From contig JBBQYG010000063.1 of assembly GCA_038208905.1 (NCBI GenBank), positions 1 through 18,999 of the forward strand: a stretch of 18,999 bases of DNA, in the 5' to 3' direction. The translations under genes were made by a program, and so were the position numbers. Positions 1 through 18,850 of the stretch are shown here, one piece after another. The stretch is from Candidatus Sumerlaeia bacterium (GTDB lineage Bacteria; Sumerlaeota; Sumerlaeia; SLMS01). Position 1 is the first letter of the stretch, and each line of letters opens with the position of its first letter. The notes under the pieces were generated by a model, which made no database searches, was not told the origin of the DNA, and saw nothing but the letters and a program-made list of their open reading frames with translations.

Positions 1-708
1 GACTCCACCGAGACCCAGGTGGTGATGGGAAAGATCTACACCACCGCCAACGTCGCCGTTCTTGAGAATTACAAGGGCAAGATGGCGGGCCCCCAAAAAA
101 TCAGCTGGCCCGGCGGTAAAGCTGGCAAGCTCGTGATGGAAGTGCCGGGCGTCCCCAAGCTGCACGCGGGCGAGGAGGCGATCCTCTTCCTCAGCAGGCC
201 GCAGGACCGCATGCCCAAGTCAACGCGCGACGCGATGAATCCGGAATCCCCCGTGAACCAAAGCTATCAAGTCGTCGGCGGATTTCAGGGAAAAATCACC
301 ATCGCCAACCACAACAAGGAAGCAAAGCAGCTTCGCAAGGGCACCGAACCGATTCCCGCCACGGCGACGGCGTCGCGAGGCACCTTCACCGGCACCAACA
401 CAAGCGCACCGAAGGTCGAAGTCGCGAAGCTTCGCGGCGCACTTCGAGGCGTGGCGAAGTCACAGGCCGACAAGGCGGCCCAGAAGGGCGCCCTCCGCAA
501 GATTGCCGGCATACGCGGCGAGTTCGCGGTTCCCGATCGCACCGACGACCCTGTCGTCCGGCTATTCGATCCGCTCCCCGGCTTCGCCTATCTGCCGGAT
601 GCGGAACTCGAAGCGGTCCGCGCGAAAATGATCGATGATCAGTTGAAGAGCCAGAAGGCGGCGCCTGTGGCGCCCAATGCCACCGGAGCCGCCCCCGAAG
701 AAAAATGA
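1..708 (+). CDS. 5'-truncated hypothetical Lys-rich protein; matrixin-associated 'IYT..PGG..G.P...GE..LFL' domain (probable beta-barrel accessory/pro-domain)
   Basis: Frame 1 is open from base 1 (DSTETQVVMGKIYTT...). The motif GKIYTTANVAVLENYKG...WPGG...VPGVPKLHAGEEAILFL...VVGGFQGK resembles a domain I recall fused or adjacent to M10/matrixin genes. The stop codon overlaps the next ORF's ATG (ATGA, 705-708). Confidence 0.7.
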   Translation, partial: DSTETQVVMGKIYTTANVAVLENYKGKMAGPQKISWPGGKAGKLVMEVPGVPKLHAGEEAILFLSRPQDRMPKSTRDAMNPESPVNQSYQVVGGFQGKITIANHNKEAKQLRKGTEPIPATATASRGTFTGTNTSAPKVEVAKLRGALRGVAKSQADKAAQKGALRKIAGIRGEFAVPDRTDDPVVRLFDPLPGFAYLPDAELEAVRAKMIDDQLKSQKAAPVAPNATGAAPEEK

Positions 709-3700
709 CCGACCGCACGCGCACCTCCTCCGCACGAGATACCTATCAGGGGATCAGAATGCTTTCACGCGCCCTTCGCCAGTTCCTTCCCATCGCAGCA
801 CTAGCAGGCATCCTGCTCGGCGCCCTTCATCAGGCGACCGCCGGCCCGGGGTTTTTGGTTTTTACCCGCGAGCGCGCGGGTACCGATCTGACTGCCATCG
901 ACGACTCGTTTTCTCGCAAAGAGTTGAAGTTCCGCGATGGGACCGAGCTGCGCTACTACCTCTATCGGCCCTTCGAAGGCCCCGCCGCTGTCCTGGACCC
1001 GGGCGTCAACACCGGCCCCGACCCGATCCTCGACGACGACATCTACCTCTCCCTGCAAAAGGCGCAGAAGCAGTGGGAGGACGCCGTCGACGATCCCAAC
1101 ATTGAGTTCAAGCTTCCCCTCTACTCCGCCGACGGCGCCTTCCCCGGCATCGCCTACTTGGAACTGGGCCCCTTCGAGGCGGCGCTCGATACACGCAACC
1201 TGATCACCTTCCGCGATCCCAACATCACCGTGGGCGATGGCATACTCGCGCTACCGATCTATTACTTCTTCGAGGAAGACTACACGATCGACCTCAACCG
1301 CAACCCGAACGAGCAGGTTCTCCTCGCGACGGACGATATCGGCGGCGACGTTGTCGTTGGTATCTTCCTTGATGGCGGGTTGCTTGGTGGGCTCAGCGAG
1401 CTTGCATTCCTGCTCCGCGGCCAGGTCGGCGAAACGATCGAGGCGGGCGAGTTGATCGAGTCCGACATCATCATAGCGGGCGCCTTCGATGGCTTCAACC
1501 TCTATCCCGAGGATCCAGAGGACCTTCCCCGAGAAGATCTGGATCGCAACGACGTCATCGGCACCGTGGACATTCAGGCGGTCTTCACCAGAGCCATCGG
1601 GCGATCGATCGGTCTGGCCGACTCCCACATCTACGCCGCCACGCTTTCGCCCTTCTACATCCTGCCCGGCGACGTGAACGACGAATTCCTGACCGACCCC
1701 TACGACGTCCGCGAGCTTTCCGTGGACGACAAGAGCGGCATGACGCGCCTGTACAGCGACAGCAAGGGCGGCGGCATCCGCGGCAGCCTGGTGCGCGGCG
1801 AGGATCAGTTGATTCCCGATTTCGGCATTCCCCTCCGAAGCGACGTGTGGATCAACGAAATCGACTATATTGACTACGACGTAATCGAGAACAATCGAGT
1901 TCTAGGCGATGACTTCGTCGAAATCGCCGGCGGAGCCGGTCTCGATATCACCGGATGGCGCCTCTACATCTATGATTCGGGCGGCAATCCCATAGGCCCC
2001 GTGGGCGGCTACACGATTCCCGGAGAGCGCCTGCCCACCCAACTTGTCAACTACGGGACCATCGCGGTCTCCACGAATCCGATCTTCAACGAGGGCCTGC
2101 CCGACACCATTGGCGGCATCGCGCTCGTGGACGATAGCTTCAACGTCATCCAGTTCCTCAGCTACGGGGCGACGATCGTTGTCCCTATCCCGACCAACGT
2201 GCCGACCGATCCAGAAGAACTCGCCGCTGCGCGCGAACTCGATCCCGTCGCCTACGGCCCCGACATCCTGCGCATTTCCACCTTCATCGAAGGTGTGGCC
2301 GAGAACCTCGCGCTGGCCGATGGCGGTGGCTCGCTTCAGTTGCAGGGGACGGGTACCCGCTTCGCCGATTTCGCCTTTGCCTTGGTGACGCCACCCACGA
2401 GAGGATTCCCCAACGTGCCGGGGCAGATCTTTGCCGGCTTCGCCTTCGAGTTTACTCAGATCACCTCCCGCGAAGCACTGGATATCTACGATCATCCGAT
2501 CTATGCGTGCCTCCCCCAGAGTTTCCGGGACCCACTCACGCTCGACACGGTCGTCGAAACCAACACGCGCTTCGGCCTGACAGAGCGCAACCGGGGGCCG
2601 CTCCGCGCGGTCGCTCACGCGCTCACCGGACCGGAGCAGCAGTACCTCTTTGCGGACGCCGAAGGCGAGATCATTCTTCCGGCGCTCGTGGACTTCCAGA
2701 ATTCGCGCTATTCGATTCCGGGACTACCGGGCGGAAGCTATTCCGTGCTGGTCGGCGCTCGCGAGGAAGGCATCTCCCTCATCGCCTCCAACGCCGTTGT
2801 CCCGTTGCTCGAAAACGAGATTACTCCCGAACTCGTCGAATTCTTCGGCGGCGTCGATCCCGCCTCGCCTGTATACGGCGATGGCAATGTACAGGAGTCG
2901 CGCCCCGGCGACAATATCATCGGAAGCTCCTTTCTGGAGTTCTGGCTGGAGTTTCGTGACCAGATCGTATCCGACAGCAGCACCGGAGCAATTTTCCAGC
3001 AGCAGAGCTATACGGGCCGCTATCGGGTCGGTATCCCCGCCGGACCCACGTTCATCGATTCGGGCGGAACCGCTGGCGGCACGTTGGAAAGTTTCGCCGT
3101 GGCTCAGCTTCGCCTGAACAAGCCGACCGGCCAGCAGACGATCTTCCTGGACAATCGCGGGCGTGGCTTTGGCGGCGATTTCGCGGGCAGCCTCGACGAT
3201 CTCGAACTGGACGAGGATGCCAACACCGCCACGCTGATCTTCAGCATCAGGGACTCCAGCGGCGCGTCCGTCGGTATCCTCGAGCAGAAGATGGAAATCG
3301 TGGGGCTTCCAGAACTTCGGATTTCAAATATCATCGGGCCGATTCTTCAGGAGCGCGTGCTTAAGGTCACCTACACGCTCTTCAACCAGACACAAACCCC
3401 CGCCAACCCGCTCGGCTATCCCATCGAGTTCGGCATGGCCAGCGTCTTCAATGCGGCCTACGGCTCCTTCCTTTCACCCCAGCTCTTCGTCAACGGGCAG
3501 TGGCAGACGGAAAAGCGCGGATTCGGCGGGCAGGGCGAAAGCTCCGTCCCCCAGGCCGTCTATTGGGGCGACAAGCCCGAGGACCCGTTCCTCCGCTTCG
3601 CGGTCTTCGGAAACATCCCCGGCGTGACCGCGCCAAGCCGCCTCATCCTTGTCGATACGGCGGAGACCAAGATCGCGGGCTTTAAGCTGGATCAGAACAA

Positions 3701-6700
3701 CCCGCTCTCCGGCATTCCACTTTGGGAGGTAAAGCCTGGCGGAATCCTTGACGGTCCGCTCATCACCTCTCCGCGCAACACCGGCGTTCTGCTCCGGTTC
3801 GATCCAACTGGCCGTGTTGCCACGGTGGGCACTCCGGCGTCGATCACGCTGGCGCTGGGCTACGACGACCTCACCTTCGACAATCCCCAGCAGAGGCTCT
3901 TCCGCCACGTCGAGAATGCCTACCTGCGGCGCGTTCCACGGGAGATTTTTGCCGACGATCCCGCCATCTCCTACCCAGTTCACGTCGGTGGCGGCATCGT
4001 TCCCAACGTAACGATCATCACCAACATCGGAAACCGTCAGGTCTTCCCCGGCAATGACTTCGATCGCGACGGCATCGAGAATGATCGCGACAACTGCCCC
4101 TATCTTGAAAACCCCGGGCAGGAGGACGTGGACAACAACGGCGTTGGCGACGCCTGCGAGGGGGACTTCGATAGCGATGGCGTTCCCGACGCCTACGATA
4201 ACTGCCCCGACGTCCCCAATCCGGCTCAGCAGGATAGCGACGGCGATGGCGTCGGCGACGACTGCGACACCGATAGCGACGGCGACGGTATTCCCACCGA
4301 GATCGACAACTGCCCCAACGACTTCAACCCGGGGCAGGAGGACAGCGATGGAGACGGCGTCGGCGATGCCTGCAACGATTCAGACCGCGATGGCGTCCCC
4401 GACCAGCGCGACAATTGCCCACTGATTCCCAACTCCGACCAGAGCGACATCGACCGTGACGGCATTGGCGACGCCTGCGACGCCGACCGCGACGGCGACG
4501 GCGTCTCCAACGAGGTGGACAACTGCCCGGACGTGCCGAACCCGAGCCAGAGCGACATCGACGACGACGGCACCGGCGACGTTTGCGATTTCGACCGCGA
4601 CGGCGACGGCGTACCCGACAATGGCGACAACTGCCCCGACGTGCCCAACCCCACTCAAACCGATACAGACGGCGACGGAATCGGCGACCTGTGCGCGCCG
4701 GGCCTCGTGGTCTTCAACGACGAGAGCGAACTCCGCCTCCCCAACGACAATCTCAACATTCTGGACATTGCCGCCGGCGATCTTACCGGTGACGGATATC
4801 CGGACGTGATCGTGGGCGTTGGCGGTCAGGGCTCGGATACTCAGGCCGGCCTTGCAAACCGCATCTACATCAACAGGGGCACCGAAGGACCGGCGGGCTT
4901 CTATACCGATCTGACATTCGGCTTCAACGGCATCCCCGAAGAAGGCGTCGCTGGCCAGCCCGGCGGCGACGACCGCCTGCCCCTCCAGCGCGACATCACG
5001 ACGAGCATCATCCTCTTCGACTTCGATCTGGATGGCGATCTCGACATCTTCTTCGGCAATTCCGGCAGCTCCGACGGCCAGCCCGGCGGCACAGACCGCC
5101 TGCTGCTCAATGTGGACATCAACGATACGGTGAAGAACCGGTTCCCCGACGATGACGAGGTTGGCGACGGTTTCTTTATCGACGTTTCCGACCTCGCTCT
5201 CCCTGGCGTGCTCAATACGAAAGACGCCGACACTAGCTATCTCTATCCGCGTCCGGCGACCACCCGCGGAGAGGCCGTGGACTTGGATTCCGACGGCGAT
5301 CTTGACCTTGTTCTTCCTACCCGCACAACCCTCGGGAGCGCGGGCTTCCTCACCGCGGTCAATCCGCAAACCGGATTTCCCAGCGCCGACTTCGGCTTCT
5401 ACGATATTGTCGGATCTGTCCTCGAGGCGAGTTTCGACACGGATCCTGGCACCCCGGTTCTCGACGCCCCGCTCAACCGCAAGACGTTTGGCACGCGCAT
5501 TATCATCAACCGGCGCAACGAACTGGTTGACGAATTCGGCAGCTCCCTCCCGCCTGGTACTCCCGACGCATTCCTCGAGTTCATCGCCCAGTCGCCCGAT
5601 GTGGTTCGATCCGTCTTCAACCCCGACATCCCCACCGACGAGGTCAACCGGCAGGCGGTCCTTCAGGATATCCTCGGCCCCGAGATCAGCATGACGCGTC
5701 GCTTGGACAAGTTCTGGATGCGTGACGAGACCCTTGGCCGCGACGGGATTTTCGGTGGCGCAACCTCCGACGTTCGCAATGCCGACCGTCTTCCTCCCGG
5801 GCACATGGACCTTCCGCAGGCGGCAATCCGTGCGCCAGGCAATCGGGAAGACGAAACTTTCGACACTAATCAGGTGGTTGTTGGCGCTTTCCTTGGCATC
5901 TACGGCCCCTCGATCTTTACAATGCTCTCGCGAACCCAGCGACTGTTTGTTGGCGAGAACGCCCGCGTGGACAGCGATGGACGCACCGCCTACTTTATCA
6001 ACTTCGACTTCCTCGATGAAAACGGGTCCCAGGCGTTCAACATTGGGGACAACCGTCTCGCGGTCGCTCAGTTCAATAGTATTGCCGATGGCGGGGTCGA
6101 CGGAATCTTCTACAATGCCAGCTATGGCGCAGATTTCTGGATTCCCCTCTTTGACAACCCATGGAGTGCGCTGATTGGCTCCCGTCAGTCCATTCCTACG
6201 GACATCGAGCCCCCGGTGCGCCCGGAGAACGGCGAGCAAGCGGTTGCAACGGAATCTACCCATACTACGACGGGCGTTGTTGTGGACAGCTACGGCTCGG
6301 GCGCTCACGACATCATCGCCTTCGAAATGACGGGAGGCGGTACATCCATGTACCGGAGCTCGCGGTTCCTCGGCGGCGTCATCGGGACTCCACTCATCAG
6401 CCGTGGACAGACCAATCATGCGATCGGCGGCGCCACGTCCGAATTTGGCTTCTTTGCCGGCAGCTATAACGACGAGGGGACCCAGATTGAAACCCAGCGG
6501 GATCTCTTTGCCGCCGAGCAACGTGTCCGGGACTCGGGATCGGCGGACTTTGACAGGAATGGCAGCATCGACATCGCGGCAGCTGGCGACGGTGGCCCAG
6601 GGTCGCAATTGTTTTCGCTCGATCCATCGGGAGGGTTTGTCTCGATCTATCTGAATATCAATGGTGAGGGTGAGCTGCTCGGGCAGGCGGGTGAGTTCCG

Positions 6701-9191
6701 CTCCATATCGGAATCTGCCTTCAGGCCCGCCCCACTTGAGACCGTGGCGGCCATTGGCATGGCGATCACCGACGTGGATAACGACGGTGACTCCGACATT
6801 ATCGTCGGTGGCAACTCTGATGGGATGCGGATTTTCGTCAACCAGCTGTATAGCCCCGAGATTCGCCCGAATGCCGCTACGTTGACGGACGCGCCAATTT
6901 TCGCGGAGTCTTCGGTGACGTTCATACCAAACCAGTACAGCGTCGCATTCCGACCGGACTTCGGATCCAACACGAGTCCGTCGGGGTCCACGGGATCAGT
7001 TGATTCCGGAGATATCGACCGCGATGGCTACCCCGATATCCTGACTGCCGGCGGCGGCGAGTTCAGCCAAGTGGGTGACAGGACATACGTTCTGCGCAAT
7101 CACGGCCCGAGCTTCCCTGGAGCCCGCTACTTCCAGCCCACGCCAGTATCCAACCCGGCACCTCGGCTCACCACCGACGGCTACGCATTCGGCGAGACCT
7201 CGCTATTCCAGTTCAACCGCGCCACCACGAAGGCCCGCTTCTTTGACTTCGACGGAGACGGCGATCTCGACGTCTTCCAGGCCAATTTCGGCGAGGCGAA
7301 CCAGCTCTTCTACAACAAGAACGCGGAAGAAGAGGATCTCTACGCCAACCAGCCTGCCTTCGCCGGGTTCAACTTCCCCTACTTCAACTCATTGTTCCGC
7401 TACCAGCAGACGGAACGCCGCGTCGGCCGTGCTCCCGATACAGGCACGCCGCCTCCCGCGTCGATTGCCCGTCAGGGCTTCCCCCCGGAAATCATGGAGC
7501 TGACCCGTCTCGGGCACGGCATCTACGAAGTGAATCAAAACTCCCCGCGTGTGGTGTATCCGAACCTCAGTGGCCCGGGAAATCGCGAATTCACCCGCGA
7601 CTTCGCCGTGGGCGACGTCAACAAGGACGGTCGCCCGGATATCTTCCTCGCCAACGGTGTGCGTGACTTCGGCGCACGCAACGTGCTACTCATCAATCGC
7701 CTCGCCGACCCCACCGATCCAAAGTCCGCGATTCTGGTGGACGAAACCTCGACCCGCATACCGCTGGTTCAGGGCCCCGATGGTCAGCCGGGCGCCATCT
7801 TCGACGACACGCGGGCCGTGGCGTTCCTGGATGTCGATTCCGACGGCGATCTGGACTTGATCGTTGGAAACAGCACCGCAGGCCGCCCGGAGGACCGTGG
7901 ACCCAACCTGGTTGAGCGGACGATCCTGTACCTCAACGATGGCACGGGCCGCTTCACCGAGCAGACCAACACCGCCCTGTGGCCCGTCATCTCCCGCTCC
8001 GTTCGCTCCATCACCGTGGCCAACTTCTCGCGCAACGGCGACTTGTCGGAAGATATCGACGGGAACGGCATCGTGACAGACCGCGAGGCACAAGTCTTCA
8101 ACCAGATGGTTGGCGTGCTCGAGTCAACGGTCTTTGCGAACGATCCTCGTCCCATCTATAACGACATCCCGGAAGCAATATCCCGCATCGGGGTTACCGA
8201 AGTCGTTCGCTCCGCCACGAATCCCAACGACACGTTCGTGACCCAGCGCCCGGCGCGGTTTGTTAACCTGAATCGCAACGTCACGCCGCAGGGCCAAGCG
8301 ATCTACGACACAACCTACGACGTGATTTTGTGGACGGCGGACGGAAACCACATCTTCCTGACCAACAATGGAAGCGGCCGATTCGTCGACTCTTCCGGCA
8401 CGGTCTTCCAGGAGCCGGTCCTCGAGGCTGTGTACGACACCGAAGTCGGCGACGTGAACCTCGATGGATGGCCCGATATCGTGCTCGCGGTGGAAGGACT
8501 TCAGCGGGATACCTCGGCCCGCCTTCTGATCAATGGCGCAACACCGGGCCTTACCTTCTTCACGAACCGTACCCAAGGCGAGATTCCGGCGCCCCTTGCC
8601 ACCCTGATCCAAGGCGTGAATAATATAAGCGAGCCCCACGGAAACGCCCGGGCGCTCGAACTCTTCGATGCGGACGGCGACGGCGACCTAGACCTCTACG
8701 TCGGCGAGGTCGGACGCAATTTTGGCGGGGATGCCATAGGCGCACTCGATGCTTTCTACGAGAACCTGCTGATCGGCACAGGGTACCGTTCCAAGGCGGT
8801 CGGCTCGCTCAAGGTTCTTCCCGGCACCGGACCGACCATCAACCCGCGCTTGGCCTTCACGGCGATCCAGCCGAACTCCGGAACCGTTGGTTCCCAGTTC
8901 ACCGTTCGCATTTTCGGGCGTCAGTTCAAGGCGGGCGCCCAGGTATTCCTGGGGCAGGGCATCACGGTGATCGGAACGCCGCAGGTCCTTTCCCCCGAGG
9001 CGATCGATGTGACGATCCGCATCGAGGCAAATGCTCGCATCGGCGGACGGCAGATCTTCGTGTTCAATCCCGATGGCGAAACCGCGGCGAGCGCTCAGGG
9101 TGCCTTTACCATCGGCGTCGTCGGACCTGGCAACCAGACCAACCCCGGCCGCGACACGACGTCGGTCACGGGCTGGGATCTCTTCAACTGA
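705..9191 (+). CDS. Giant secreted multidomain surface protein (pseudo-matrixin, lamin-tail-like, TSP3 x6, FG-GAP propellers, EF-hand, IPT/TIG); true start may be ATG 759
   Basis: 2828-aa uninterrupted ORF with GC-biased third codon positions. A Sec signal peptide [28 protein letters not shown] starts at ATG 759, with a CAGGGGA SD-like sequence upstream. Domain motifs are listed as separate features. Confidence 0.93.
   Translation: [2828 protein letters not shown]
920..1755 (+). other. Matrixin (M10)-like metzincin domain with degenerate active site
   Basis: [23 protein letters not shown] and [19 protein letters not shown] align to D[LI]QxVxTHExGHxLGLxHS. AATLSP sits at the Met-turn position and [15 protein letters not shown] matches the C-terminal helix. 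Boundaries are approximate. Confidence 0.75.
1845..2415 (+). other. Lamin-tail-domain (LTD)-like module
   Basis: VWINEIDY...[21 protein letters not shown]...GIALVD...VIQFLSYG...SLQLQGTG...TRGFPN matches the LTD-type module found in bacterial extracellular nucleases and surface proteins. Confidence 0.75.
4056..4700 (+). repeat. Six tandem thrombospondin type-3 (Ca-binding) repeats of ~36 aa (~108 bp)
   Basis: Six units of DxDxDG[IV]xxxxDNCPxxxNxxQxDxDxxGxGDxC, e.g. [34 protein letters not shown]. Confidence 0.95.
4760..8770 (+). repeat. FG-GAP/VCBS-like repeats, probably two 7-bladed beta-propellers
   Basis: Eleven clear DxxxxGxxD motifs: [110 protein letters not shown]. About three more are degenerate. 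[10 protein letters not shown]-type strands are also present. Confidence 0.88.
8844..9113 (+). other. IPT/TIG (Ig-like) domain
   Basis: [13 protein letters not shown]...[9 protein letters not shown]..GAQV...[11 protein letters not shown]...VFNPDG...AFTI follows the IPT/TIG pattern. Confidence 0.85.
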
Positions 9192-9205: not shown

Positions 9206-11806
9206 ATGAAGAAGGCAACGATGAATCCGGCGGTGGGCGCGATGGCGCTCGTGTGCTCCCTGATGATGGGCATCCCGTCGGCATCCCCGGCGGGGGAGGA
9301 GGCGGGGAGTCCTCGATTTACCTCTGAATTTCGCTACCTGCTCGATGACCTCCGCCCGATGTCCGCAGAGGATCGCGGACGTGCAGAGAAGAGCGTGCAC
9401 ACGGAGCGCGCAACTCCGCTCTTCCGCCTTCGCGGCAAGCAGAGCGACCAGATTCAGGCCTATGTATGGCTCGATAGCTGGGACCAAGACCTGCGCGATG
9501 CCGTCGTCGCCGCCGGTGCTCAGTTGGAGGAGGAAGACCCCTCCCGCCTCCTGATGCAGGTTTGGCTTCCCATCGACCGGGCAGAGGCCATCGCTTCCAT
9601 CAAGGGCGTCCGGCACATTCGTCGGCCCTCGTATGCGTCCCCCGCTTCAGGGGCGGTGCTGACGGAAGGCGACACGAACATCGGCAGCTTCTTCATCCGC
9701 GCACTCGGAAACAAGAACGGCCTCGGCATTCGCGTGGGCGTGATATCCCACGGACTTTTCGACGCCGGATTCAGTTCGGGGAGCATTCAATCCGGAGGTG
9801 CCAATCGGGATGGTCGGGTGCTGAGTGGTGACCTCCCCATTTTTCCCGTCCCCGACCCCTCTGTAATGGCCCCCACGTTTGGTTTCCTCGGTGGGGTGGA
9901 GATTTTCCCCTCCTCGCCGACGATCCACGACCTGACGCAGGAAGGCGTCCCTGCCTTTGGCCGGACATTCGCCGAAGGCGCCGCGATTCTGGAAATCCTC
10001 CACGATGTTGCGCCCGGTTCCAAGTTATTCTATGCCGACGCCAAGACCGACGTCGAGCTCCAGAGCCGCCGAAACACCATGCTGCGGATCATTGGCTCCG
10101 ACAAGATTCCCTCCATCGATGCGGAGCGCGACGAAGGCGTGGACGTGATCGTGGACGATCTGGTCTTCTACGACTCGGGTCGATTCGACGGCAGCAGCCC
10201 GATTTCCCGCCGGGCGCAGGAGATCGTGCTCAATAACGATGTGGTGTATGTCTCCGCCACGGGCGACTACACCCCTCCGCCTACCGGGTCTGGCACACTC
10301 ACGGCTGCGCAATCGGGGCGGTTTCCGATCTTCGTCAACGGCTACTTCACTCCCGTGCCCGGTGCCAATGATTCCAAGGTCCACAACTGGACCGAAGGCC
10401 GTGCGCCCCAGATCACCGACAACGTGCTACTTGTCCGCCCTCAGTCTGGTGTCATTGACATAGCCGTAGTGTGGGACGATATCTGGGACGATGTAAATCC
10501 CCGGGCCAAGGACGATATCGACCTGTTCCTCCTCAAGCCGCTGGATTTAACGCCGAGCCAGGCGTCTCTTCCTCCTCTGCCCGAGGTGGTGCGCGGTTCC
10601 ACCGACTTGCAGAACGGAACGACCGGGCGCCCCATCGAGCGCTTCACCTACATCGACTCCAGCAACGTCTATGGCAATAACAACTTCCGCCTTGTGATGA
10701 GCCGCAAGAATTCCCTCAACAGTACCCGGACTCTCTTCACGCTGATCATTTTCCAAGGCATCGTGGACAGCTCCGACTCTGTCTATCTGACGCACGGGAT
10801 TGCGGGCAACAATGGCGATGCGCTTCCCCCGGTGATAACCGTTGGCTCTCTCGACGCCCAGCTCGGCGTCGATACGGTGCTCACTTCCACGGTGCCGGGG
10901 CTCTCGCCGGGGCCGGGACGCGCCTTTGATAACAACTTCGTCCGCTGGTTTACGCGCCAAACCACCCCGTCGGTGGTCAGCTACTCCAACGTTACGACGC
11001 GATCCAGCGGCAGCTATTTCCCCGGATCCTCCGCCGCCGCGGCCCACATCGGCGGGCTTGTCTCGCTTCTGCGCCACTCGTTCAGGGACATTCCCGCCTA
11101 CGAATACTACAATATTCTCCGTGCCACGGGAAACGACGCCCAATTCCCCAATGCCACCGCGCTGAACACCGAAACGCTCGAGCCGTTTGGAAATGCTCCA
11201 ACCTACCTTCGCGTCAACGGCTTCGATACCTGGTTCAACCTTGGCGGAAACACTCCTGTGGCGCCTGAGCGCCGCTCGGCCAAGGTCTCGCCGATGCTCT
11301 CCGTCACCGCCTGGGAACCGAGCGACTCCACCGGCGTCTTTGCCGATCCCGATTTCGGCAGCTCCTCCCTTGGCGTCTCGCTTTCCCCGGCAGGCCGCAA
11401 CAACGTCTTTGGCTTCTGGCAGACTCCCGTGCTCGCGTTCAGCGGTCCCGGCGGAACCGAATCCGCCGCATTGTCCACCAACAAGCTCTACCGCCTCACC
11501 GCTCGCATTGGCACCGACGAATCGGACCCGTCTCGCGTACCGGATTTCCGGCTCCGTCTCACCAGTGGCGCCAACGACGAGTCGGGCCTCCTGGTAGTTG
11601 CCGGACTCGACAGCTCCGCCGCCAACACTCCCAACACCATCGGCGGCAAGGAGTACGAGCTGTACTACCGTCCCACCAATTCCGCCGTCGCGGCTCAGGG
11701 GGTGCGCTTCGCGTTCGACCTGATCCACTTCGATCCCAGCGACAACGCCGATGCGACGCTCTTTGTTCAGGACGTGAAGTTCGAAGAGTTCAACATCCCC
11801 GAGTAG
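9206..11806 (+). CDS. Secreted S8 subtilase-like protein with divergent catalytic motifs and a C-terminal beta-rich domain
   Basis: Signal peptide (…GAMALVCSLMMGIPSASPA) followed by a propeptide-like segment (IASIKGVRHIRRP). Motifs GLGIRVGVISHG, EGAAILEILHDVAPGSKLFY, GVDVIVDD, VVYVSATGD, VITVGS and FPGSSAAAAHIGGLVSLL match the S8 subfamily with EGxAMxxIxHDxAPGA. Starts 14 nt after the upstream stop, with a GAGGA SD-like sequence. Confidence 0.88.
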   Translation: MKKATMNPAVGAMALVCSLMMGIPSASPAGEEAGSPRFTSEFRYLLDDLRPMSAEDRGRAEKSVHTERATPLFRLRGKQSDQIQAYVWLDSWDQDLRDAVVAAGAQLEEEDPSRLLMQVWLPIDRAEAIASIKGVRHIRRPSYASPASGAVLTEGDTNIGSFFIRALGNKNGLGIRVGVISHGLFDAGFSSGSIQSGGANRDGRVLSGDLPIFPVPDPSVMAPTFGFLGGVEIFPSSPTIHDLTQEGVPAFGRTFAEGAAILEILHDVAPGSKLFYADAKTDVELQSRRNTMLRIIGSDKIPSIDAERDEGVDVIVDDLVFYDSGRFDGSSPISRRAQEIVLNNDVVYVSATGDYTPPPTGSGTLTAAQSGRFPIFVNGYFTPVPGANDSKVHNWTEGRAPQITDNVLLVRPQSGVIDIAVVWDDIWDDVNPRAKDDIDLFLLKPLDLTPSQASLPPLPEVVRGSTDLQNGTTGRPIERFTYIDSSNVYGNNNFRLVMSRKNSLNSTRTLFTLIIFQGIVDSSDSVYLTHGIAGNNGDALPPVITVGSLDAQLGVDTVLTSTVPGLSPGPGRAFDNNFVRWFTRQTTPSVVSYSNVTTRSSGSYFPGSSAAAAHIGGLVSLLRHSFRDIPAYEYYNILRATGNDAQFPNATALNTETLEPFGNAPTYLRVNGFDTWFNLGGNTPVAPERRSAKVSPMLSVTAWEPSDSTGVFADPDFGSSSLGVSLSPAGRNNVFGFWQTPVLAFSGPGGTESAALSTNKLYRLTARIGTDESDPSRVPDFRLRLTSGANDESGLLVVAGLDSSAANTPNTIGGKEYELYYRPTNSAVAAQGVRFAFDLIHFDPSDNADATLFVQDVKFEEFNIPE

Positions 11807-11899: not shown

Positions 11900-13024
<1,125 letters not shown>

Positions 13025-13489: not shown

Positions 13490-13940
13490 GGAGGCACCGC
13501 CCTGTCTGGGACTTCGGCGACTGATCCCCGCCGTTGGCCGAAGAGTGCCCGCCAAAGCCGGAGGGGCAAGCCGGGTTTGTCCCGGCCGTGAAACAGACCA
13601 TCATGAAGTTCTCGACCGGTAGATCCCCGCCAACGGCGACGGCGCATTCAGCCCCCACTCCGCGTTGTTGAGCGGATTGGGGTGGTGCCGTCGTAGTTGA
13701 ACGCGAGTTCGTCTACCTCTCCCTCCGCCGCAAGGCTCCTTGAGCGAACTGGAGATCACCTCCGACGTTGGGAACAGGTTCCGACAGTGCTGCGCGAGGA
13801 GCGTCGCCGAGCCCTCAGCGTTGGGACCCAACATACAGGTGCCGCCGAGCGTCTCATAGTTCGGTGACTTTGTGGTCTATGATATGGCGAACCAGACGTG
13901 GGGCCTTGCCCCGCCTTGGGCGCTGGGGAACAACCAACCC

Positions 13941-14588
13941 ATGAGCTTTACTCCCCCAAATTCAACCCCATCCGGGAATGCGCCCACTCAAGCCGCGAAA
14001 GGCGTCGGCGGAAGGCGGGTCACCATCATTGCGTTTCTGATCCTGATGGGTATCGCGATCTTTACGTACTTCGTGGTTCCCATGCTTGTGACGCCCTACC
14101 TGCGGGCTCGCCCGGCGGAGCTTCAGGCTTCCTTCGGGGTGATCGAGGCGGCCCTCCGCGCCTACCACGCCGACCACGGTGTGTTTCCACCGCGCGAGCA
14201 AATGCTCAATCACAGGCGCCCCAACAAGAACCTGACCACATCGAGGGCATATGGCATCAACGCCTATCGCCTCGCCTCGCTCACAACACCGGTGGCCTAT
14301 CTGGATCCCAACAAGGGCCCCGACCCATATGCCATGCCCGAGCAGTTCGCGCCTCCGGGATATGCCACGGGACTGCTCGATTCAGATAGCGTCGCCTACG
14401 CGCTCCTCTTCTCGCCCGGGCCCAACCTTCGGTACGACATTCGGAACATCGAGATTGAGGATCTGACCTCCCTCGCCGCCATCGAGGACGCGGTCGCGCG
14501 AAGAACCTACGACCCCACCAACGGCGCACGGAGCGGGGGCGATTTGCCGCGGCTCGTGATAATTCCCTTGCAGACCGCCCGCCCCTAG
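13941..14588 (+). CDS. GspG/pseudopilin-like single-pass membrane protein with degenerate prepilin site
   Basis: One N-terminal TM helix, then ALRAYHADHGVFP, LTTPVAYL, DPY, SPGPN and YDPTNGARSGGD, as in GspG-like pilin paralogs. Start placed at ATG 13941; the ORF track extends to 13872. Confidence 0.82.
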   Translation: MSFTPPNSTPSGNAPTQAAKGVGGRRVTIIAFLILMGIAIFTYFVVPMLVTPYLRARPAELQASFGVIEAALRAYHADHGVFPPREQMLNHRRPNKNLTTSRAYGINAYRLASLTTPVAYLDPNKGPDPYAMPEQFAPPGYATGLLDSDSVAYALLFSPGPNLRYDIRNIEIEDLTSLAAIEDAVARRTYDPTNGARSGGDLPRLVIIPLQTARP

Positions 14589-15068: not shown

Positions 15069-16649
15069 ATGCTCCAACTCACCAAGTACGGGATCAACGT
15101 CCCGAACGTGTATCATAACTGTTCCGTCGCAAAGCTCTACCAGCTCGGCCTTCGGGTCCCCGGCAACTACATCGCCAGCAGCGGCGCCTTGATCGCCTAC
15201 TCGGGAGAGAAGACAGGCCGCAGCCCCAAGGACAAGCGCGTCGTCGAGGAGGAGACCAGCAAGGACAACATCTGGTGGGGGACCGTGAACATCCCCATTC
15301 CGGAGGACAGCTTTCAGATCCTCCGCGACGAGGCAATCTACTCCCTCAACTCCCGCCGCCAGCATGTCTATGTGGTCGATGGATTCGCCGGGTGGGATTC
15401 GAAGTACCGCATCAAGGTCCGCGTGATCTGCGGGCGCGCGTACCATGCGCTCTTCATGCACAACATGCTCATTCGCCCCACGCCCGATGAACTGGCCAAC
15501 TTTGGCGAGCCGGATTGGGTGATCTACAACGCGGGCCAGATCCGCGTCAGCCCGCACATCAAGGGCCTCTCCAGCCCCACCTCCATCGACATCGATTTCA
15601 AGACGCGCGAGATGGTGATCCTTGGCAGCGAGTACGCCGGAGAAATGAAGAAGGGCGTCTTCACCGTCCTTCACTACATCCTCCCGCTGCAGGGCGTGCT
15701 CAGCATGCACTGCTCCGCCAACGAAGGACCCAAGGGCGATACCGCGCTCTTCTTCGGCCTCAGCGGCACGGGCAAGACGACGCTCTCCGCCGATCCCAAG
15801 CGGTCGCTCATTGGCGACGACGAGCACGGTTGGTCCGACGACGGAATCTTCAACTTCGAGGGCGGTTGCTACGCCAAGTGCGTGAACCTCTCCGCGGAGA
15901 AGGAGCCCGAAATCTTCGGCGCGATTCGCTTCGGCAGCGTGTTGGAGAACGTCGTCTTCGATCCCGAGACCTACGAGGTGAAGTACGAGGACGTCTCTAT
16001 CACCGAAAACACCCGGTGCAGCTATCCCATCGAGTACATCCCCAACGCCAAGGTTCCCTGCGTCGGCGGGCATCCCAAGAACGTCATCTTCCTGACGTGC
16101 GATGCCTTTGGAGTTCTACCCCCGGTTTCGCGCCTGACCACGGGCCAGGCCATGTATCACTTCATCAGCGGATATACAGCCAAGGTGGCTGGCACCGAAA
16201 TGGGCGTGAGCGCGCCACAGGAGACTTTCTCCGCGTGCTTCGGGGCCGCCTTCCTTGTCTGGCACCCCACCAAGTACGCCGACTTGCTGAAGGAAAAGCT
16301 GGAGAAGCACGGCTCCACGGTCTGGCTCGTGAACACCGGATGGACCGGTGGCGGCCCGGGCGCAGGCAAGCGCTTCGAGCTCAAGTACACGCGCGCCGTG
16401 ATCGACGCGATTCTCGACGGCACGCTGGACAAGGGCGCCTTCGAGGAGGACGACGTCTTTGGTCTCCACATTCCCAAGGCCGTCCTCAACGTCCCGGCGG
16501 AAGTGCTCCGCCCGCGCAACACCTGGAAGGACAAGGAGTCATACGACGCGGCGGCAAAGAATCTCTCGCGACTCTTCCACGAGAATTTCAAGAAGTACGC
16601 TGACAAGGCGTCGGCGGAATTGCTCGCGGGGGCGCCCAAGGGCGTTTGA
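15069..16649 (+). CDS. pckA: Phosphoenolpyruvate carboxykinase (ATP)
   Basis: TGRSPKDK, YAGEMKK, SMHCSAN, P-loop FFGLSGTGKTTLS, IGDDEHGW, FNFEGGCYAK, TENTR, GYTAKVAGTE and WLVNTGW motifs. Strongly biased codon usage. Confidence 0.98.
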   Translation: MLQLTKYGINVPNVYHNCSVAKLYQLGLRVPGNYIASSGALIAYSGEKTGRSPKDKRVVEEETSKDNIWWGTVNIPIPEDSFQILRDEAIYSLNSRRQHVYVVDGFAGWDSKYRIKVRVICGRAYHALFMHNMLIRPTPDELANFGEPDWVIYNAGQIRVSPHIKGLSSPTSIDIDFKTREMVILGSEYAGEMKKGVFTVLHYILPLQGVLSMHCSANEGPKGDTALFFGLSGTGKTTLSADPKRSLIGDDEHGWSDDGIFNFEGGCYAKCVNLSAEKEPEIFGAIRFGSVLENVVFDPETYEVKYEDVSITENTRCSYPIEYIPNAKVPCVGGHPKNVIFLTCDAFGVLPPVSRLTTGQAMYHFISGYTAKVAGTEMGVSAPQETFSACFGAAFLVWHPTKYADLLKEKLEKHGSTVWLVNTGWTGGGPGAGKRFELKYTRAVIDAILDGTLDKGAFEEDDVFGLHIPKAVLNVPAEVLRPRNTWKDKESYDAAAKNLSRLFHENFKKYADKASAELLAGAPKGV

Positions 16650-16686
16650 TCCCGCCAAACCGGGCACCGAATGAATGGGTCCATAA

Positions 16687-16730
16687 AAAGCCTCCCCTCT
16701 CGCCTTGTGTCCCGGGCGGGAGGGGGCTTT
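16687..16730 (+). terminator. Probable intrinsic terminator after pckA
   Basis: Imperfect stem AAAGCC..CCCTCTCGCC / GGCGGGAGGG.GGCTTT followed by a pyrimidine-rich tract. Confidence 0.55.
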
Positions 16731-16771
16731 CCTCTTCAGACGAATCTCAATTTCAAGGACGTCCCCTCCGC

Positions 16772-18850
16772 ATGAACCTTCGCCATCTCGCCGCCATTGC
16801 ACTCTCCTTCGCCTGTCTCGGGCTGGGCGCATGTACCAGAACGATGGCGGATCGCACTGTCGCGGGCCAGACCAAGTACACACTCGGAGGCGGTATGATC
16901 TCGAAAGTCCCCCTGATTCCGCGCGACGTGCTGTTTGGCAACCCCGACCGCGCCGCCGTCCGTTTGAGCAACGATGGCCGCTACATCAGCTTCCTCTCTC
17001 CCGTCGAGGGCGTAATGAACGTTTGGGTCGCGCCCGCGGATAGCCCGGACAAGGCCGAGCCCGTGACCTTTGACAAGGGGCGCGGCATCCGATCCTACTT
17101 CTGGGCATACAACAACACGCACCTACTCTATACTCAGGACAAGGACGGCGACGAGAACTGGCGCGTCTATACGGTTGAGGTGGCCACAAAGACAGTTGCA
17201 GACCTTACGCCGCAGACAGGCGTCCGCGCCGAGATCGAATCGGTGAGCGCCGACTTTCCGAACGAAATCCTGATCGGACTGAACGACCGCAACGAGCAGT
17301 TCCACGACATCTACCGCCTGAACATCATCAACGGACAGAAGGAGCTGGTGCTCCAGAACGACGAGTACGCGGGCTTTGTGACAGACGACGCGTACCAAGT
17401 GCGCTTCGCGTCGAAATACGCCGACGACGGCTCGTTCGTTTACTACGCCCCCGATGGATCAGGCGGTTGGAAGGAGTTCATGAAAGTCGCCTCCGAGGAT
17501 ACGTTCAACACCTACTTCGCCGGCTTCGACAAGAGCGGCAAAATCGCCTACTTCGGCGACAGCCGAGGGCGGAACACCAGCGCGCTGACGACGCTCGATC
17601 TTGAGACGGGCGAGCAGAAAGTCCTCGCGGAGGACCCGCTGGCGGACCTGAGCGGCACAATGAGCCATCCCACCGAGAAGACCATCGAGGCCGTCAGCTT
17701 CGACTATGACCGGCGTCGCTTCACGATTCTCGACGAGCGCATCCGCCCCGACATCGAGGCGCTGGAAAAGCTTGCCGACGGCGAGCTGGTTCTTACCAGC
17801 CGCACGCTGGACGACACCCGGTGGGTGGCGGCTTTCCTGCGCGACACGGGCCCGACGGAGTACTATCTGTGGGATCGCACGGAGCAGAAGGCCACGTATC
17901 TTTTCAGCAATCGCAAGGCGCTGGAGGGACTCCCCCTCGCGCCGATGAAGCCCGTGATCATTCCCGCGCGCGACGGCCTGGCGCTGGTCTCCTACCTTAC
18001 GATTCCCGTGCACGTGCCGCTGAATGCCGATGGCATGCCGACGCGCGCAGTGCCACTTGTGCTCAACGTGCATGGCGGGCCATGGGCGCGCGATTCGTGG
18101 GGCTATGACGCCGAGCATCAGCTCCTCGCCAATCGTGGCTATGCGGTGCTTGCGGTGAACTTCCGCGGGTCCACGGGGCTCGGCAAGAATTTCACCAACG
18201 CGGGAAACGGCGAGTGGGCGGCCAAGATGCACGACGACTTGATCGACGCCGTGACATGGGCCATCGGGCGCGGCATCGCCGATCCGGAGCGCATCGCCAT
18301 CATGGGCGGCAGCTATGGCGGCTATGCCACGCTGGTCGGCCTGACATACACGCCCGAGGTGTTTGCCTGCGGTGTCGATATCGTGGGGCCGTCGAACCTG
18401 ATCACTCTGCTGAATTCAATCCCGCCGTATTGGGCTCCCGCGCTGGAGATGTTCAAGCGCCGCCTGGGCGACCACACCACAGAGGAGGGCCGCAAGTTCC
18501 TCGAATCGCGGTCGCCCCTCAACTTTGTGGATCGCATCAGCAAGCCGCTCCTCATCGCGCAGGGCGCAAACGACCCGCGCGTGAAGCAGGCAGAGGCCGA
18601 CCAGATCGTGAAGGCCATGCAGGATAGGAACATCCCCGTGACCTATGTCCTGTATCCCAACGAGGGCCACGGCTTCGCACGCCCGGAGAACAACAAGTCC
18701 TTCATGGCAGTGACCGAGGCGTTTCTCGCTCAGCACCTCGGTGGTCGCTACGAGCCGATTGGGAAGGACTTCGAGGGCTCGTCCATCACCGTGCCCGCTG
18801 GTGCGGATGGCGTGCCAGGACTGAGCGCGGCGCTGCAGATGACGCCGTGA
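16772..18850 (+). CDS. S9 family serine peptidase (dipeptidyl aminopeptidase/acylaminoacyl peptidase type), predicted lipoprotein
   Basis: VHGGPWARD, NFRGSTG, nucleophile GGSYGG, Asp in GANDPRV and His in EGHGF, with an N-terminal propeller region. ATG 16772 gives the signal MNLRHLAAIALSFACLGLGA-C (lipobox). The ORF track's start at 16646 would span the terminator. Confidence 0.93.
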   Translation: MNLRHLAAIALSFACLGLGACTRTMADRTVAGQTKYTLGGGMISKVPLIPRDVLFGNPDRAAVRLSNDGRYISFLSPVEGVMNVWVAPADSPDKAEPVTFDKGRGIRSYFWAYNNTHLLYTQDKDGDENWRVYTVEVATKTVADLTPQTGVRAEIESVSADFPNEILIGLNDRNEQFHDIYRLNIINGQKELVLQNDEYAGFVTDDAYQVRFASKYADDGSFVYYAPDGSGGWKEFMKVASEDTFNTYFAGFDKSGKIAYFGDSRGRNTSALTTLDLETGEQKVLAEDPLADLSGTMSHPTEKTIEAVSFDYDRRRFTILDERIRPDIEALEKLADGELVLTSRTLDDTRWVAAFLRDTGPTEYYLWDRTEQKATYLFSNRKALEGLPLAPMKPVIIPARDGLALVSYLTIPVHVPLNADGMPTRAVPLVLNVHGGPWARDSWGYDAEHQLLANRGYAVLAVNFRGSTGLGKNFTNAGNGEWAAKMHDDLIDAVTWAIGRGIADPERIAIMGGSYGGYATLVGLTYTPEVFACGVDIVGPSNLITLLNSIPPYWAPALEMFKRRLGDHTTEEGRKFLESRSPLNFVDRISKPLLIAQGANDPRVKQAEADQIVKAMQDRNIPVTYVLYPNEGHGFARPENNKSFMAVTEAFLAQHLGGRYEPIGKDFEGSSITVPAGADGVPGLSAALQMTP

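Follow-up and report, generated by a model that had tools for sequence, protein, structure and literature searches.

A matrixin-like domain without zinc ligands, and its predicted TIMP-fold partner, in a giant exported protein of Candidatus Sumerlaeota

What is a protease fold for when every residue that should bind its zinc has been replaced? The question is raised by contig JBBQYG010000063.1 (GCA_038208905.1) of a Candidatus Sumerlaeia bacterium (lineage SLMS01), whose 18,999 nt are the whole stretch of DNA that we analysed and are called the window here. It encodes a giant exported protein that begins with a degenerate matrixin domain. The features we refer to are as follows, all on the forward (+) strand.

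1..708, +: upstream partner gene, truncated at its 5' end where the contig starts; profile matches cover 4-330
705..9191, +: ORF of the giant exported protein, 2828 aa counted from the first ATG
759..842, +: likely signal peptide of the giant protein, placed by eye with the -3/-1 rule
843..1784, +: pseudo-matrixin domain, aa 47-360, with a predicted MMP-like fold and insertions
1248..1268, +: strand aa 182-188, the likely cleft edge strand, from the domain model and its G045 equivalent
1590..1622, +: degenerate zinc-binding motif RAIGRSIGLAD, aa 296-306, active-site helix and loop
1626..1628, +: His308, the sole His of the pseudo-matrixin domain, from the sequence
1644..1646, +: Leu314 at the Met-turn position, from the sequence and the orthologue alignment
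1800..2450, +: insert of ~220 aa, aa 366-582, not in the closest full-length orthologues
4050..4727, +: Thrombospondin type 3 (TSP3) calcium-binding repeats, 7 Pfam stretches
4737..8804, +: FG-GAP-like repeat region, 11 Pfam stretches, bounds approximate
8853..9113, +: Ig/IPT-like domain, scores under curated cut-offs
9156..9188, +: C-terminal V-x-x-W-x-x-F tail, common to many ORFs of the host genome
9206..11806, +: downstream subtilase-like gene, 14 bp past the giant gene

Judging from the sequence, translation of the giant protein more likely starts at a second in-frame ATG, at 759, which is preceded by AGGGGA. The metzincin domain comes right after the signal peptide; neither a propeptide nor a cysteine switch lies in between, and the first Cys of the protein is aa 602. 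The ~220-aa insert had no Pfam or NCBIfam match, and a related stretch is present in another ORF of the host genome (C110). The FG-GAP-like repeats are likely beta-propellers. Forty ORFs of the host genome carry the V-x-x-W-x-x-F tail, where a control offset by 30 residues gave 10; the tail is likely a sorting tag, and the giant protein is likely surface-exposed. The gene at 9206..11806, which we take to be subtilase-like, had no match in the libraries searched for this label. It adjoins the giant gene in many relatives, and its membership in the same module is only putative.

The first-pass annotation had read the DNA at 1569-1755, which encodes DIQAVFT...MTRLY (aa 289-350 of the ORF), as a metzincin site stripped of its catalytic residues. 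Its positions for the motif, the His and the Leu are correct and lie within an intact ORF. Its substitution register is also the one we obtained by aligning the domain with orthologues that carry HExxHxxGxxH: His1 has become Arg296, Glu Ala297, His2 Arg300, His3 Asp306 and the Met-turn Met Leu314. The alignment thus bears out the loss of all zinc ligands and of the catalytic Glu. The likeness to a degenerate motif is not a matter of chance, as the same alignment columns hold the intact motif in 21 of 62 orthologous domains. No HExxH occurs anywhere in the 2828-aa protein; an active matrixin is defined by HExxHxxGxxH with three zinc ligands (PMC12587646).

The predicted structure also agrees with a metzincin, and the annotation's refuting condition of a fold unlike that of metzincins does not hold. 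The domain model (pLDDT 88.6) aligned with MMP-9 at Z 14.8 and an rmsd of 2.9 A over 154 residues, the best five rows were all MMPs, and all eight Foldseek matches at E<=0.001 were MMP or karilysin entries. Searched against PDB sequences, the family profile matched MMP-16, MMP-14 and karilysin (E 4e-5 to 1e-4). Pfam PF00413 did not match the host's own domain; it matched 24 of 60 family members at E<=0.01, and the orthologues with an intact HExxHxxGxxH exceed its cut-off. Because searches with the single host domain miss it (nothing relevant in Pfam, NCBIfam or PDB sequences), the origin of the domain is visible only through its orthologues and its fold. It resembles matrixins (MEROPS M10A, PF00413, including bacterial karilysin) in fold, motif position and Met-turn position. 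It differs in having no zinc ligands, catalytic Glu, propeptide or structural-zinc His, in the Leu at its Met-turn, and in size (~310 aa against ~160) and setting, at the head of a 2828-aa TSP3/FG-GAP protein.

MMPs are marked by a His-rich structural zinc site and a cysteine-switch propeptide, and the domain, with 1 His only, has no such zinc site. Its 314 aa hold 59 D/E, 24 K/R, 1 His and 0 Cys, which makes it strongly acidic. With one His and no Cys, a normal zinc site is impossible to build from this sequence. With neither the zinc ligands of matrixins nor their catalytic glutamate, the domain is likely catalytically dead. The Met-turn residue is not diagnostic alone: among the 62 orthologues the column is Met in 45 and Leu in 15, Leu or Trp stands there in 2 of 21 intact copies, and Met is kept in 26 of 41 dead ones.

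Could the lost site have been rebuilt? His308, Asp306 and nearby carboxylates might form a different metal site with residual or different hydrolase activity, and the annotation itself had raised a zinc site of His308 plus Asp. In the host's order 18 of 24 copies retain His308, and pseudoenzymes with migrated catalytic residues exist according to the available sections of PMC10211241. However, the domain has no general-base Glu besides its single His and lack of Cys, two Arg sit at the metal position, and the His308 column is His in 22 of 62 orthologues, including 4 intact ones, while 23 of 41 dead copies do not have it. Among the invariant columns we saw no residue that was special to dead copies. 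We give almost no weight to a rebuilt site. His308 as a gained ligand was rejected on the same grounds: intact enzymes also have His in this column, and the domain holds no other His.

Orthologues of the giant gene occur in 62 of 75 Ca. Sumerlaeota genomes, nearly always as a single copy and by vertical inheritance, and the orthologous proteins are about 1950-2750 aa long. HExxHxxGxxH is intact in 21 of the 62 and lost in 41. A tree made without the motif columns recovered the families and gave 7 state changes, from which we infer that the motif was lost separately seven times across the phylum. A single origin of the loss was rejected (p-AU 7e-66).

None of the 63 family matches has a stop codon inside it, and dN/dS was below 1 for dead and intact copies alike (0.10-0.53 in six dead same-genus pairs and 0.23-0.34 in four intact pairs, with two further pairs saturated in each group). 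Dead copies are full length, and conservation is about equal in their domain and in the remainder of the protein. By these measures the dead copies are under purifying selection and the gene is not decaying, so the domain is retained, as had been proposed. Judged by the orthologue alignment and the trees, the domain descends from active family members and is probably a pseudopeptidase (non-peptidase homologue) of M10A. A frameshift or assembly artefact was rejected because the same kind of motif occurs in nine genomes of the same family, and a recent broken allele was rejected by dN/dS, conservation and the tree. Searching the genome contigs with the single host protein found no related loci.

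The first-pass annotation contained neither this coexistence of intact and dead orthologues in the phylum nor the conserved gene upstream. That gene encodes a secreted, cysteine-free protein (the signal peptide is seen in relatives). In the ATGA at 705-708 its stop codon overlaps with the first ATG of the giant ORF. Of the 62 loci, 59 have it upstream, namely 40 of the 41 dead ones and 19 of the 21 intact ones. The single dead copy without it is at a locus cut off by a contig end, and the 2.2 kb upstream of one intact second copy (L041) contain no partner gene. Both genes are missing from 11 of 75 genomes, and only one of the two is seen in 3 of 75, with a completeness of 75-82%.

The host partner is truncated, and the pair that we modelled comes from a close relative, G045, whose domain is 53% identical to the host's. 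The G045 partner model (pLDDT 92.1) aligned with N-TIMP-3 at Z 9.4 (rmsd 2.7, 114 aligned) and with agrin NtA at Z 9.2, and the best 13 rows were NTR/TIMP-type. Foldseek placed TIMP-2 and NtA at the top (best E 0.004). The N-TIMP/NTR fold is a prediction from the model; sequence identity to these fold matches is 8-16%. None of 56 partner members matched the Pfam TIMP or NTR profiles at E<=0.01, and a search of PDB sequences with the partner gave no TIMP at E<=10. TIMPs have an N-terminal Cys-x-Cys and a disulfide frame as their signature. The partner has no Cys at its predicted mature N-termini or in its consensus. A -3/-1 scan put a cleavage site 14 or 15 residues before a conserved Asp in 42 of 58 partners, but the scan is noisy and other offsets score too, so we claim no exact TIMP register.

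Among secondary partner homologues we fetched 17, of which 16 had downstream DNA; in 4 the partner is fused to a matrixin-like domain, and in 12 it directly precedes one. No longer, fused forms of the partner were found in a large protein set, which is weak evidence; the fusions came from genomes of the phylum.

The G045 pair gave a complex model with an ipSAE of 0.84, and the best of three controls reached 0.00. The score passes the mark we used for ipSAE, which is reached by 116 of 157 solved pairs and 2 of 215 mismatched ones, counts that are only rough. Contacts agreed in at least 90% between runs, with a partner pLDDT of 85. In this model the interface takes in the residues that replace His1, Glu, His2 and His3, the edge strand, and partner residues 1-5, 31-34 and 66-74. 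The equivalent of the host strand aa 182-188 pairs antiparallel with partner 67-71; residues 1-5 touch the domain, but confidence is highest for the contacts at 67-71 and 113-116. The partner is therefore predicted, as modelled, to plug the dead cleft, with contacts that may echo those of solved TIMP-MMP complexes. Because such complexes exist, the score may stem from structural memory, and the partner's lack of a sequence match to TIMPs can be set against this concern. Interface conservation in dead copies showed no clear excess (0.41 vs 0.42 for the domain, 0.43 vs 0.39 for the partner). Covariation between the proteins was weak (mean z 0.48) and is circular, as it depends on the model.

We believe, with a probability of roughly 60%, that the dead domain is a docking head for its co-encoded TIMP-fold partner, which would sit in the former active-site cleft. 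On this reading a former protease and its inhibitor persist as a non-catalytic module for docking or chaperoning. It is rather unlikely that the dead domain is purely structural and that the partner is kept for another job, such as capping active matrixins or binding elsewhere on the giant protein. In favour of this, an intact matrixin exists in the host genome (at C45), conservation is not raised at the interface, and operon order can last without direct binding. Against it, a separate partner gene precedes the C45 matrixin, further weak matches to the A1 profile (which is no general matrixin search) turned up in just 5 of 75 genomes, and the partner was modelled in the dead cleft while the controls stayed at 0.00.

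The annotation had also suggested that the two Arg might take over the charge of the zinc or bind an acidic ligand, and had named the conservation of RxxGR in orthologues as a check. The idea finds little backing: RxxGR is present in only 2 of 62 orthologues, and in 2 of 55 library representatives, where 20 of 55 have the intact motif. RxxGR as a conserved family signature was rejected on these counts. What does hold is a broader pattern typical of the host's family, in whose 10 copies K/R stands at His1 in 10, R at His2 in 9 and D/E at His3 in 10; 23 of 82 charged columns in this family are conserved that well. K/R...R is found in 10 of 62 orthologues, and a distant lineage (L052) acquired RxxGR..GLAD independently. 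Dead lineages outside the host's family have Glu, Gln, Thr, Ser, Phe or Tyr at the former ligand positions. From these patterns the empty zinc pocket in the host's family is probably filled by Lys/Arg-Arg-Glu/Asp salt bridges. The family conservation and the independent case in L052 would also suit a new site for an acidic ligand. We think this very improbable, as the motif is rare, the conserved acid at His3 can pair internally with the basic residues, the domain is strongly acidic overall, the same residues lie under the partner in the model, and the positions were chosen after the fact.

The dead cleft could instead be a substrate-trapping adhesin that still binds the substrates of its ancestor, with the partner as a cap that is released after export. 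The domain heads a protein whose TSP3 and FG-GAP repeats are of the adhesin type, inhibitor-like model geometry suits a cap, and animal pseudo-metzincins such as ADAM22 serve as receptors (PMC11266112, available sections). However, cleft residues vary widely among dead lineages and share no new specificity, and in the same sections LGI1 is bound by the surface of ADAM22 and not by its pseudo-active site. An adhesin of this kind is quite improbable. Animal pseudo-metzincins (ADAM2, 7, 11, 22, 23; unc-71) are likewise described there as non-catalytic metzincin folds that act as interaction domains of extracellular proteins. They belong to M12B; in Sumerlaeota it is orthologues and not paralogues that switch state repeatedly, and, unlike in the animal proteins, the ligand is predicted by the model to lie inside the cleft.

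As for the docking head, the known systems that resemble it include inhibitor pairs. The partner resembles the TIMP N-terminal domain/NTR (MEROPS I35) in its predicted fold, and may do so in the N-terminal residues and loops predicted to cover the cleft; it differs in having no N-terminal Cys, disulfides, or Pfam or PDB sequence match. In TIMPs the alpha-amino group binds the catalytic zinc, according to the available part of PMC9890683, whereas the host domain offers no zinc to bind. Listeria monocytogenes Mtz-Tim is likewise a conserved pair of adjoining metzincin and TIMP-like genes in a bacterium (PMC8235301), a likeness by description. Tim differs in being a downstream gene and a lipoprotein that is cleaved by active Mtz, and the phenotypes require Mtz activity (PMC8235301). 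In Tannerella forsythia the PotA-karilysin pair (potempin-KLIKK) has an OB-fold barrel, encoded directly upstream, that forms a stable complex with an MMP-like peptidase. Potempins are lipoproteins that inhibit active enzymes, and their authors term them otherwise unrelated to TIMPs (PMC9890683, available part). No potempin appeared in the 50 fold matches listed for the partner.

The docking head could have come about as follows. The giant protein and the partner would both be exported by signal peptides. The ancestral matrixin would have had no propeptide, and the partner would have acted as a propeptide in trans, both folding aid and latency cap. Proteolysis would then have become dispensable in seven lineages, while the heterodimer was still needed, either as an aid to folding or export or as a structural cap. 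Such a cap would sit at the tip of a calcium-binding surface protein of 2000-2800 aa, made of TSP3 repeats and FG-GAP propellers. Between a chaperone and a structural role the evidence favours neither. Only tentatively, and with the odds somewhat against it, we propose that the bacterial TIMP-fold protein and the matrixin form an obligate two-subunit structural module, a permanent propeptide in trans for which proteolysis is optional.

In the literature we found no characterised bacterial pseudo-matrixin and nothing on the Sumerlaeota giant protein. Pseudo-metzincins have been described from animals (ADAMs). A review (PMC11266112) assigns most pseudometallopeptidases to M12 and M14, and the only prokaryotic case given in its available sections is M16B. 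A survey of microbial MMPs dropped sequences without the canonical motif, so such surveys can miss pseudo-matrixins by design (PMC12587646).

The analysis also draws attention to a likely surface protein that is conserved in an uncultured phylum and has so far escaped characterisation. In this one orthologous Sumerlaeota gene catalysis appears to have been lost seven times and the partner never demonstrably. The family is a natural experiment in which active orthologues can be matched with dead ones, each alongside the TIMP-fold partner that belongs to it. A dead enzyme leaves an inhibitor nothing to inhibit, and as the partner is kept at 40 of 41 dead copies, its role as inhibitor, chaperone or structural subunit becomes directly testable, a question that bears on the origin of the animal TIMP-MMP pairing. 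If the structural-module reading is true, the TIMP-MMP interface would have a non-inhibitory assembly role in bacteria, and the pair would build the head of a phylum-wide giant adhesin.

The domain treated here is the N-terminal part of a giant protein, and the features around it are the following.

1-708, + strand: ORF of the upstream partner, with its 5' end lost at the contig start
705..9191, + strand: ORF of the giant protein, 2828 aa
1590-1622 (aa 296-306), + strand: RAIGRSIGLAD in translation, the degenerate metzincin motif
1800-2450, + strand: insert of ~220 aa that the closest full-length orthologues of the giant protein lack
9156-9188, + strand: V-x-x-W-x-x-F tail, the C-terminal end of the giant protein
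9206-11806, + strand: downstream gene, 14 bp after the giant gene
13872-14588: 238-aa ORF with a hydrophobic N-terminal stretch

The host genome is 94% complete, and its contig C63 begins at the window. Re-translation placed RAIGRSIGLAD, His308 and Leu314 exactly where the first-pass annotation had put them. A motif scan found no HExxH in the whole 2828-aa protein. The domain has one His, no Cys and 59 Asp or Glu; aa 1-400 contain no histidines other than those at positions 42 and 308, and no Cys occurs in the protein before aa 602. Pfam reports TSP3 repeats in 7 stretches, FG-GAP repeats in 11 and a weak Ig-like domain in the giant protein. It gives no match for the N-terminal domain, which was also blank in a search of PDB sequences with the window's protein.

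The metzincin fold that the annotation had claimed is what the AlphaFold2 model of the domain predicts (pLDDT 88.6, pTM 0.89). All eight Foldseek matches at E<=0.001 are MMPs or karilysin, and VIA-align scored MMP-9 highest, at Z 14.8 (rmsd 2.9, 154 aligned), ahead of other metzincins. The degenerate motif sits on the helix at aa 290-301 of this model.

We found the domain in 61 of the 75 genomes of the phylum with a single-protein search and in 62 with a profile search, almost always as one copy per genome, and no match had a stop codon inside it. Searching 1.84 billion protein representatives gave 58 domain matches; one relative, 50% identical along the whole domain, is labelled Candidatus Sumerlaeota by its source. 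The motif was read in 62 domains from 61 genomes (two are from G010), leaving out the N-terminal fragments of G001 and G005:C301, both without the motif region. HExxHxxGxxH is intact in 21 of these domains and lost in 41 (we call the copies intact or dead), and it is intact in 20 of 55 library representatives. The two motif glycines are conserved in 61 and 58 of the 62, and orthologues also show the partial states HNxxH, HExxHxxGxxN, HExxN and RExxH. Intact orthologues reach or nearly reach the PF00413 cut-off, 24 of 60 aligned members match PF00413 at E<=0.01, and the family profile matches MMP-16, MMP-14 and karilysin among PDB sequences. The domain descends from M10A and falls outside the active matrixins by their membership tests.

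Domain dN/dS was 0.10–0.53 for dead same-genus pairs (n=6; 2 further pairs saturated) and 0.23–0.34 for intact ones (n=4; 2 further pairs saturated). Within families the domain diverges at about the rate of the partner, dead or intact, and against 33 long orthologues it is conserved about as well as the remainder of the giant protein (e.g. 58% vs 49%, 44% vs 44%, 35% vs 33%). The pseudo-matrixin proposed by the annotation is real and well supported, and we are nearly certain that it has no protease function. It would work in the manner of animal pseudo-metzincins such as ADAM22 and its relatives (PMC11266112).

The annotation had also proposed that two Arg residues replace the zinc charge or bind an acidic ligand. 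In the host's family the columns of His1, His2 and His3 do hold a conserved charged set (Lys or Arg in 10/10, Arg in 9/10, Asp or Glu in 10/10), a level of conservation reached by 23 of 82 charged columns, and internal salt bridges may stand in for zinc there. The set is not common to the dead copies as a whole among the 62 domains: K/R...R occurs in 10 and RxxGR itself in just 2, so the feature is family-specific at most and an Arg site for an acidic ligand is very unlikely. We also considered His308 as a gained zinc ligand and ruled it out because the same column is His in 4 intact copies as well as in 18 dead ones. In a domain with a single His and no Cys, a rebuilt metal site is hardly credible.

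In 59 of the 62 loci (40/41 dead, 19/21 intact) the gene immediately upstream, in the same orientation, is a partner homologue. At the dead exception the contig breaks off ~200 bp before the reading frame; at one intact exception the gene is split across two contigs and the partner is on the other; the last, an intact second copy, has no partner within 2.2 kb upstream. Both genes are absent from 11 of the 75 genomes. These include the whole of family f16 (G067-G073, seven genomes, one closed as a single contig), in which our profiles found neither domain nor partner, and this lineage apparently does without the module.

The partner bears a signal peptide and has no fitting family in Pfam or NCBIfam and no PDB sequence match. 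The predicted fold of the copy from genome G045 (model pLDDT 92.1) resembles N-TIMP-3 at Z 9.4 (rmsd 2.7, 114 aligned). Agrin NtA scores Z 9.2, and the best 13 fold matches are all NTR/TIMP-type. Foldseek ranks TIMP-2 top, yet at E 0.004; the partner agrees with TIMP (I35) in predicted fold and differs in cysteines and sequence.

Secondary loci were fetched for 17 partner matches and 2 matrixin matches. Downstream DNA was available for 16 of the 17: in 4 the partner is fused to an HExxH domain and in 12 it directly precedes a matrixin-like gene, one of them degenerate. Both loci chosen by matrixin match have an upstream partner. One is the intact pair on contig C45 of the host genome (L112, G000:C45:18287-22041), with a 1060-aa frame that is the host's one intact matrixin above the Pfam cut-off and a TIMP-fold-type gene upstream. 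The degenerate gene (L099:633-2573, G016:C38) follows a partner homologue; it is a second, unrelated matrixin-like gene and, judged by its motif, a further pseudo-matrixin beyond the main orthologous group. The fusions (L095, L096, L097, L098) are natural single frames, and in the matrixins of L095, L103, L104, L107 and L108 Asp is the likely third ligand.

A tree of 60 domains with the motif columns removed recovered the families and needed 6 changes between intact and dead states. The combined tree of 56 domain-plus-partner rows, without the window and 5 others whose partner or domain was missing or partial, needed 7. The host's entire order is dead (24/24 in the motif reading; branch support 92/79), and the other changes fall in f11 (sister to the intact f10), f14, one f12 genome, f15 (two places) and f18. 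A single grouping of all dead rows was rejected (p-AU 7e-66). The combined tree is unrooted; we take the intact motif as ancestral because outside matrixins carry it, and on that basis the changes would be seven losses.

We modelled the complex for the G045 pair, which has a dead motif and a domain 53% identical to the window's. Its ipSAE was 0.84 against 0.00 for the best control; the mark we used is reached by 116 of 157 solved pairs and 2 of 215 mismatched ones, counts that hold only roughly here. At least 90% of contacts were common between runs, and the partner had a pLDDT of 85. On the domain side the predicted interface takes in the edge strand, the loop that follows the Met-turn and the residues replacing His1, Glu, His2 and His3; the partner contributes residues 1-5, 31-34, 66-74 and 88-117. 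We take this arrangement to look like TIMP bound to MMP, and the score may reflect likeness to solved TIMP-MMP complexes and not binding. Contact over the former active site would also suit a peptide-trapping adhesin with the partner as a removable cap, which we consider improbable. Two results speak against the complex: interface residues in dead copies are not more conserved than others, and domain-partner covariation is weak and circular. The first would fit a domain that is a structural relic while the partner works elsewhere, a reading we find unlikely.

Beyond the pair, a tail similar to V-x-x-W-x-x-F ends most long orthologues of the giant protein. Such ends occur in 40 of 5957 host-genome reading frames >250 aa; when the position is shifted by 30 residues as a control, the count is 10. 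The tail is likely a phylum-specific sorting tag. The ~220-aa insert has a relative in an ORF on contig C110 of the same genome (E 1e-8) and no match in the domain libraries searched; by eye it resembles a lamin-tail-like domain. The 9206-11806 gene, presumably subtilase-like, has no Pfam or NCBIfam match, and its homologue adjoins the giant gene in many genomes of the host's order and of f12-f14. Its product retains the likely nucleophile Ser and has Glu/Asp at the usual His position; the Asp of the f12/f13 copies is His in the window's and variable across the host's order. The gene may encode another protease in decay, the second in this operon. The 13872-14588 product has no Pfam match at E<=1, and we take its N-terminal stretch to be pilin- or pseudopilin-like. 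By eye, 11900-13024, 15069-16649 and 16646-18850 look like an ordinary sugar ABC-transporter ATPase, ATP-dependent PEP carboxykinase and S9 prolyl-oligopeptidase-family peptidase.

Published bacterial parallels are Mtz-Tim of Listeria (PMC8235301) and PotA-karilysin of Tannerella (PMC9890683), both with an active enzyme. Our literature search, which covered few subscription journals, turned up neither a characterised bacterial pseudo-matrixin nor a description of the giant protein. What stands out in this phylum is that catalysis was lost repeatedly and the TIMP-fold partner retained. Motif loss, orthology, gene pairing and selection are observed, and the folds and the complex are predicted. 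The ancestral matrixin would have been propeptide-less, with a TIMP-fold protein from a separate gene as its cap. Because proteolysis would have been lost seven times while the pair stayed, we think, with a probability of roughly 60%, that the dead domain is kept for its contact with the partner, and that this contact serves the folding, export or structure of the domain as head of a giant surface protein that binds calcium.
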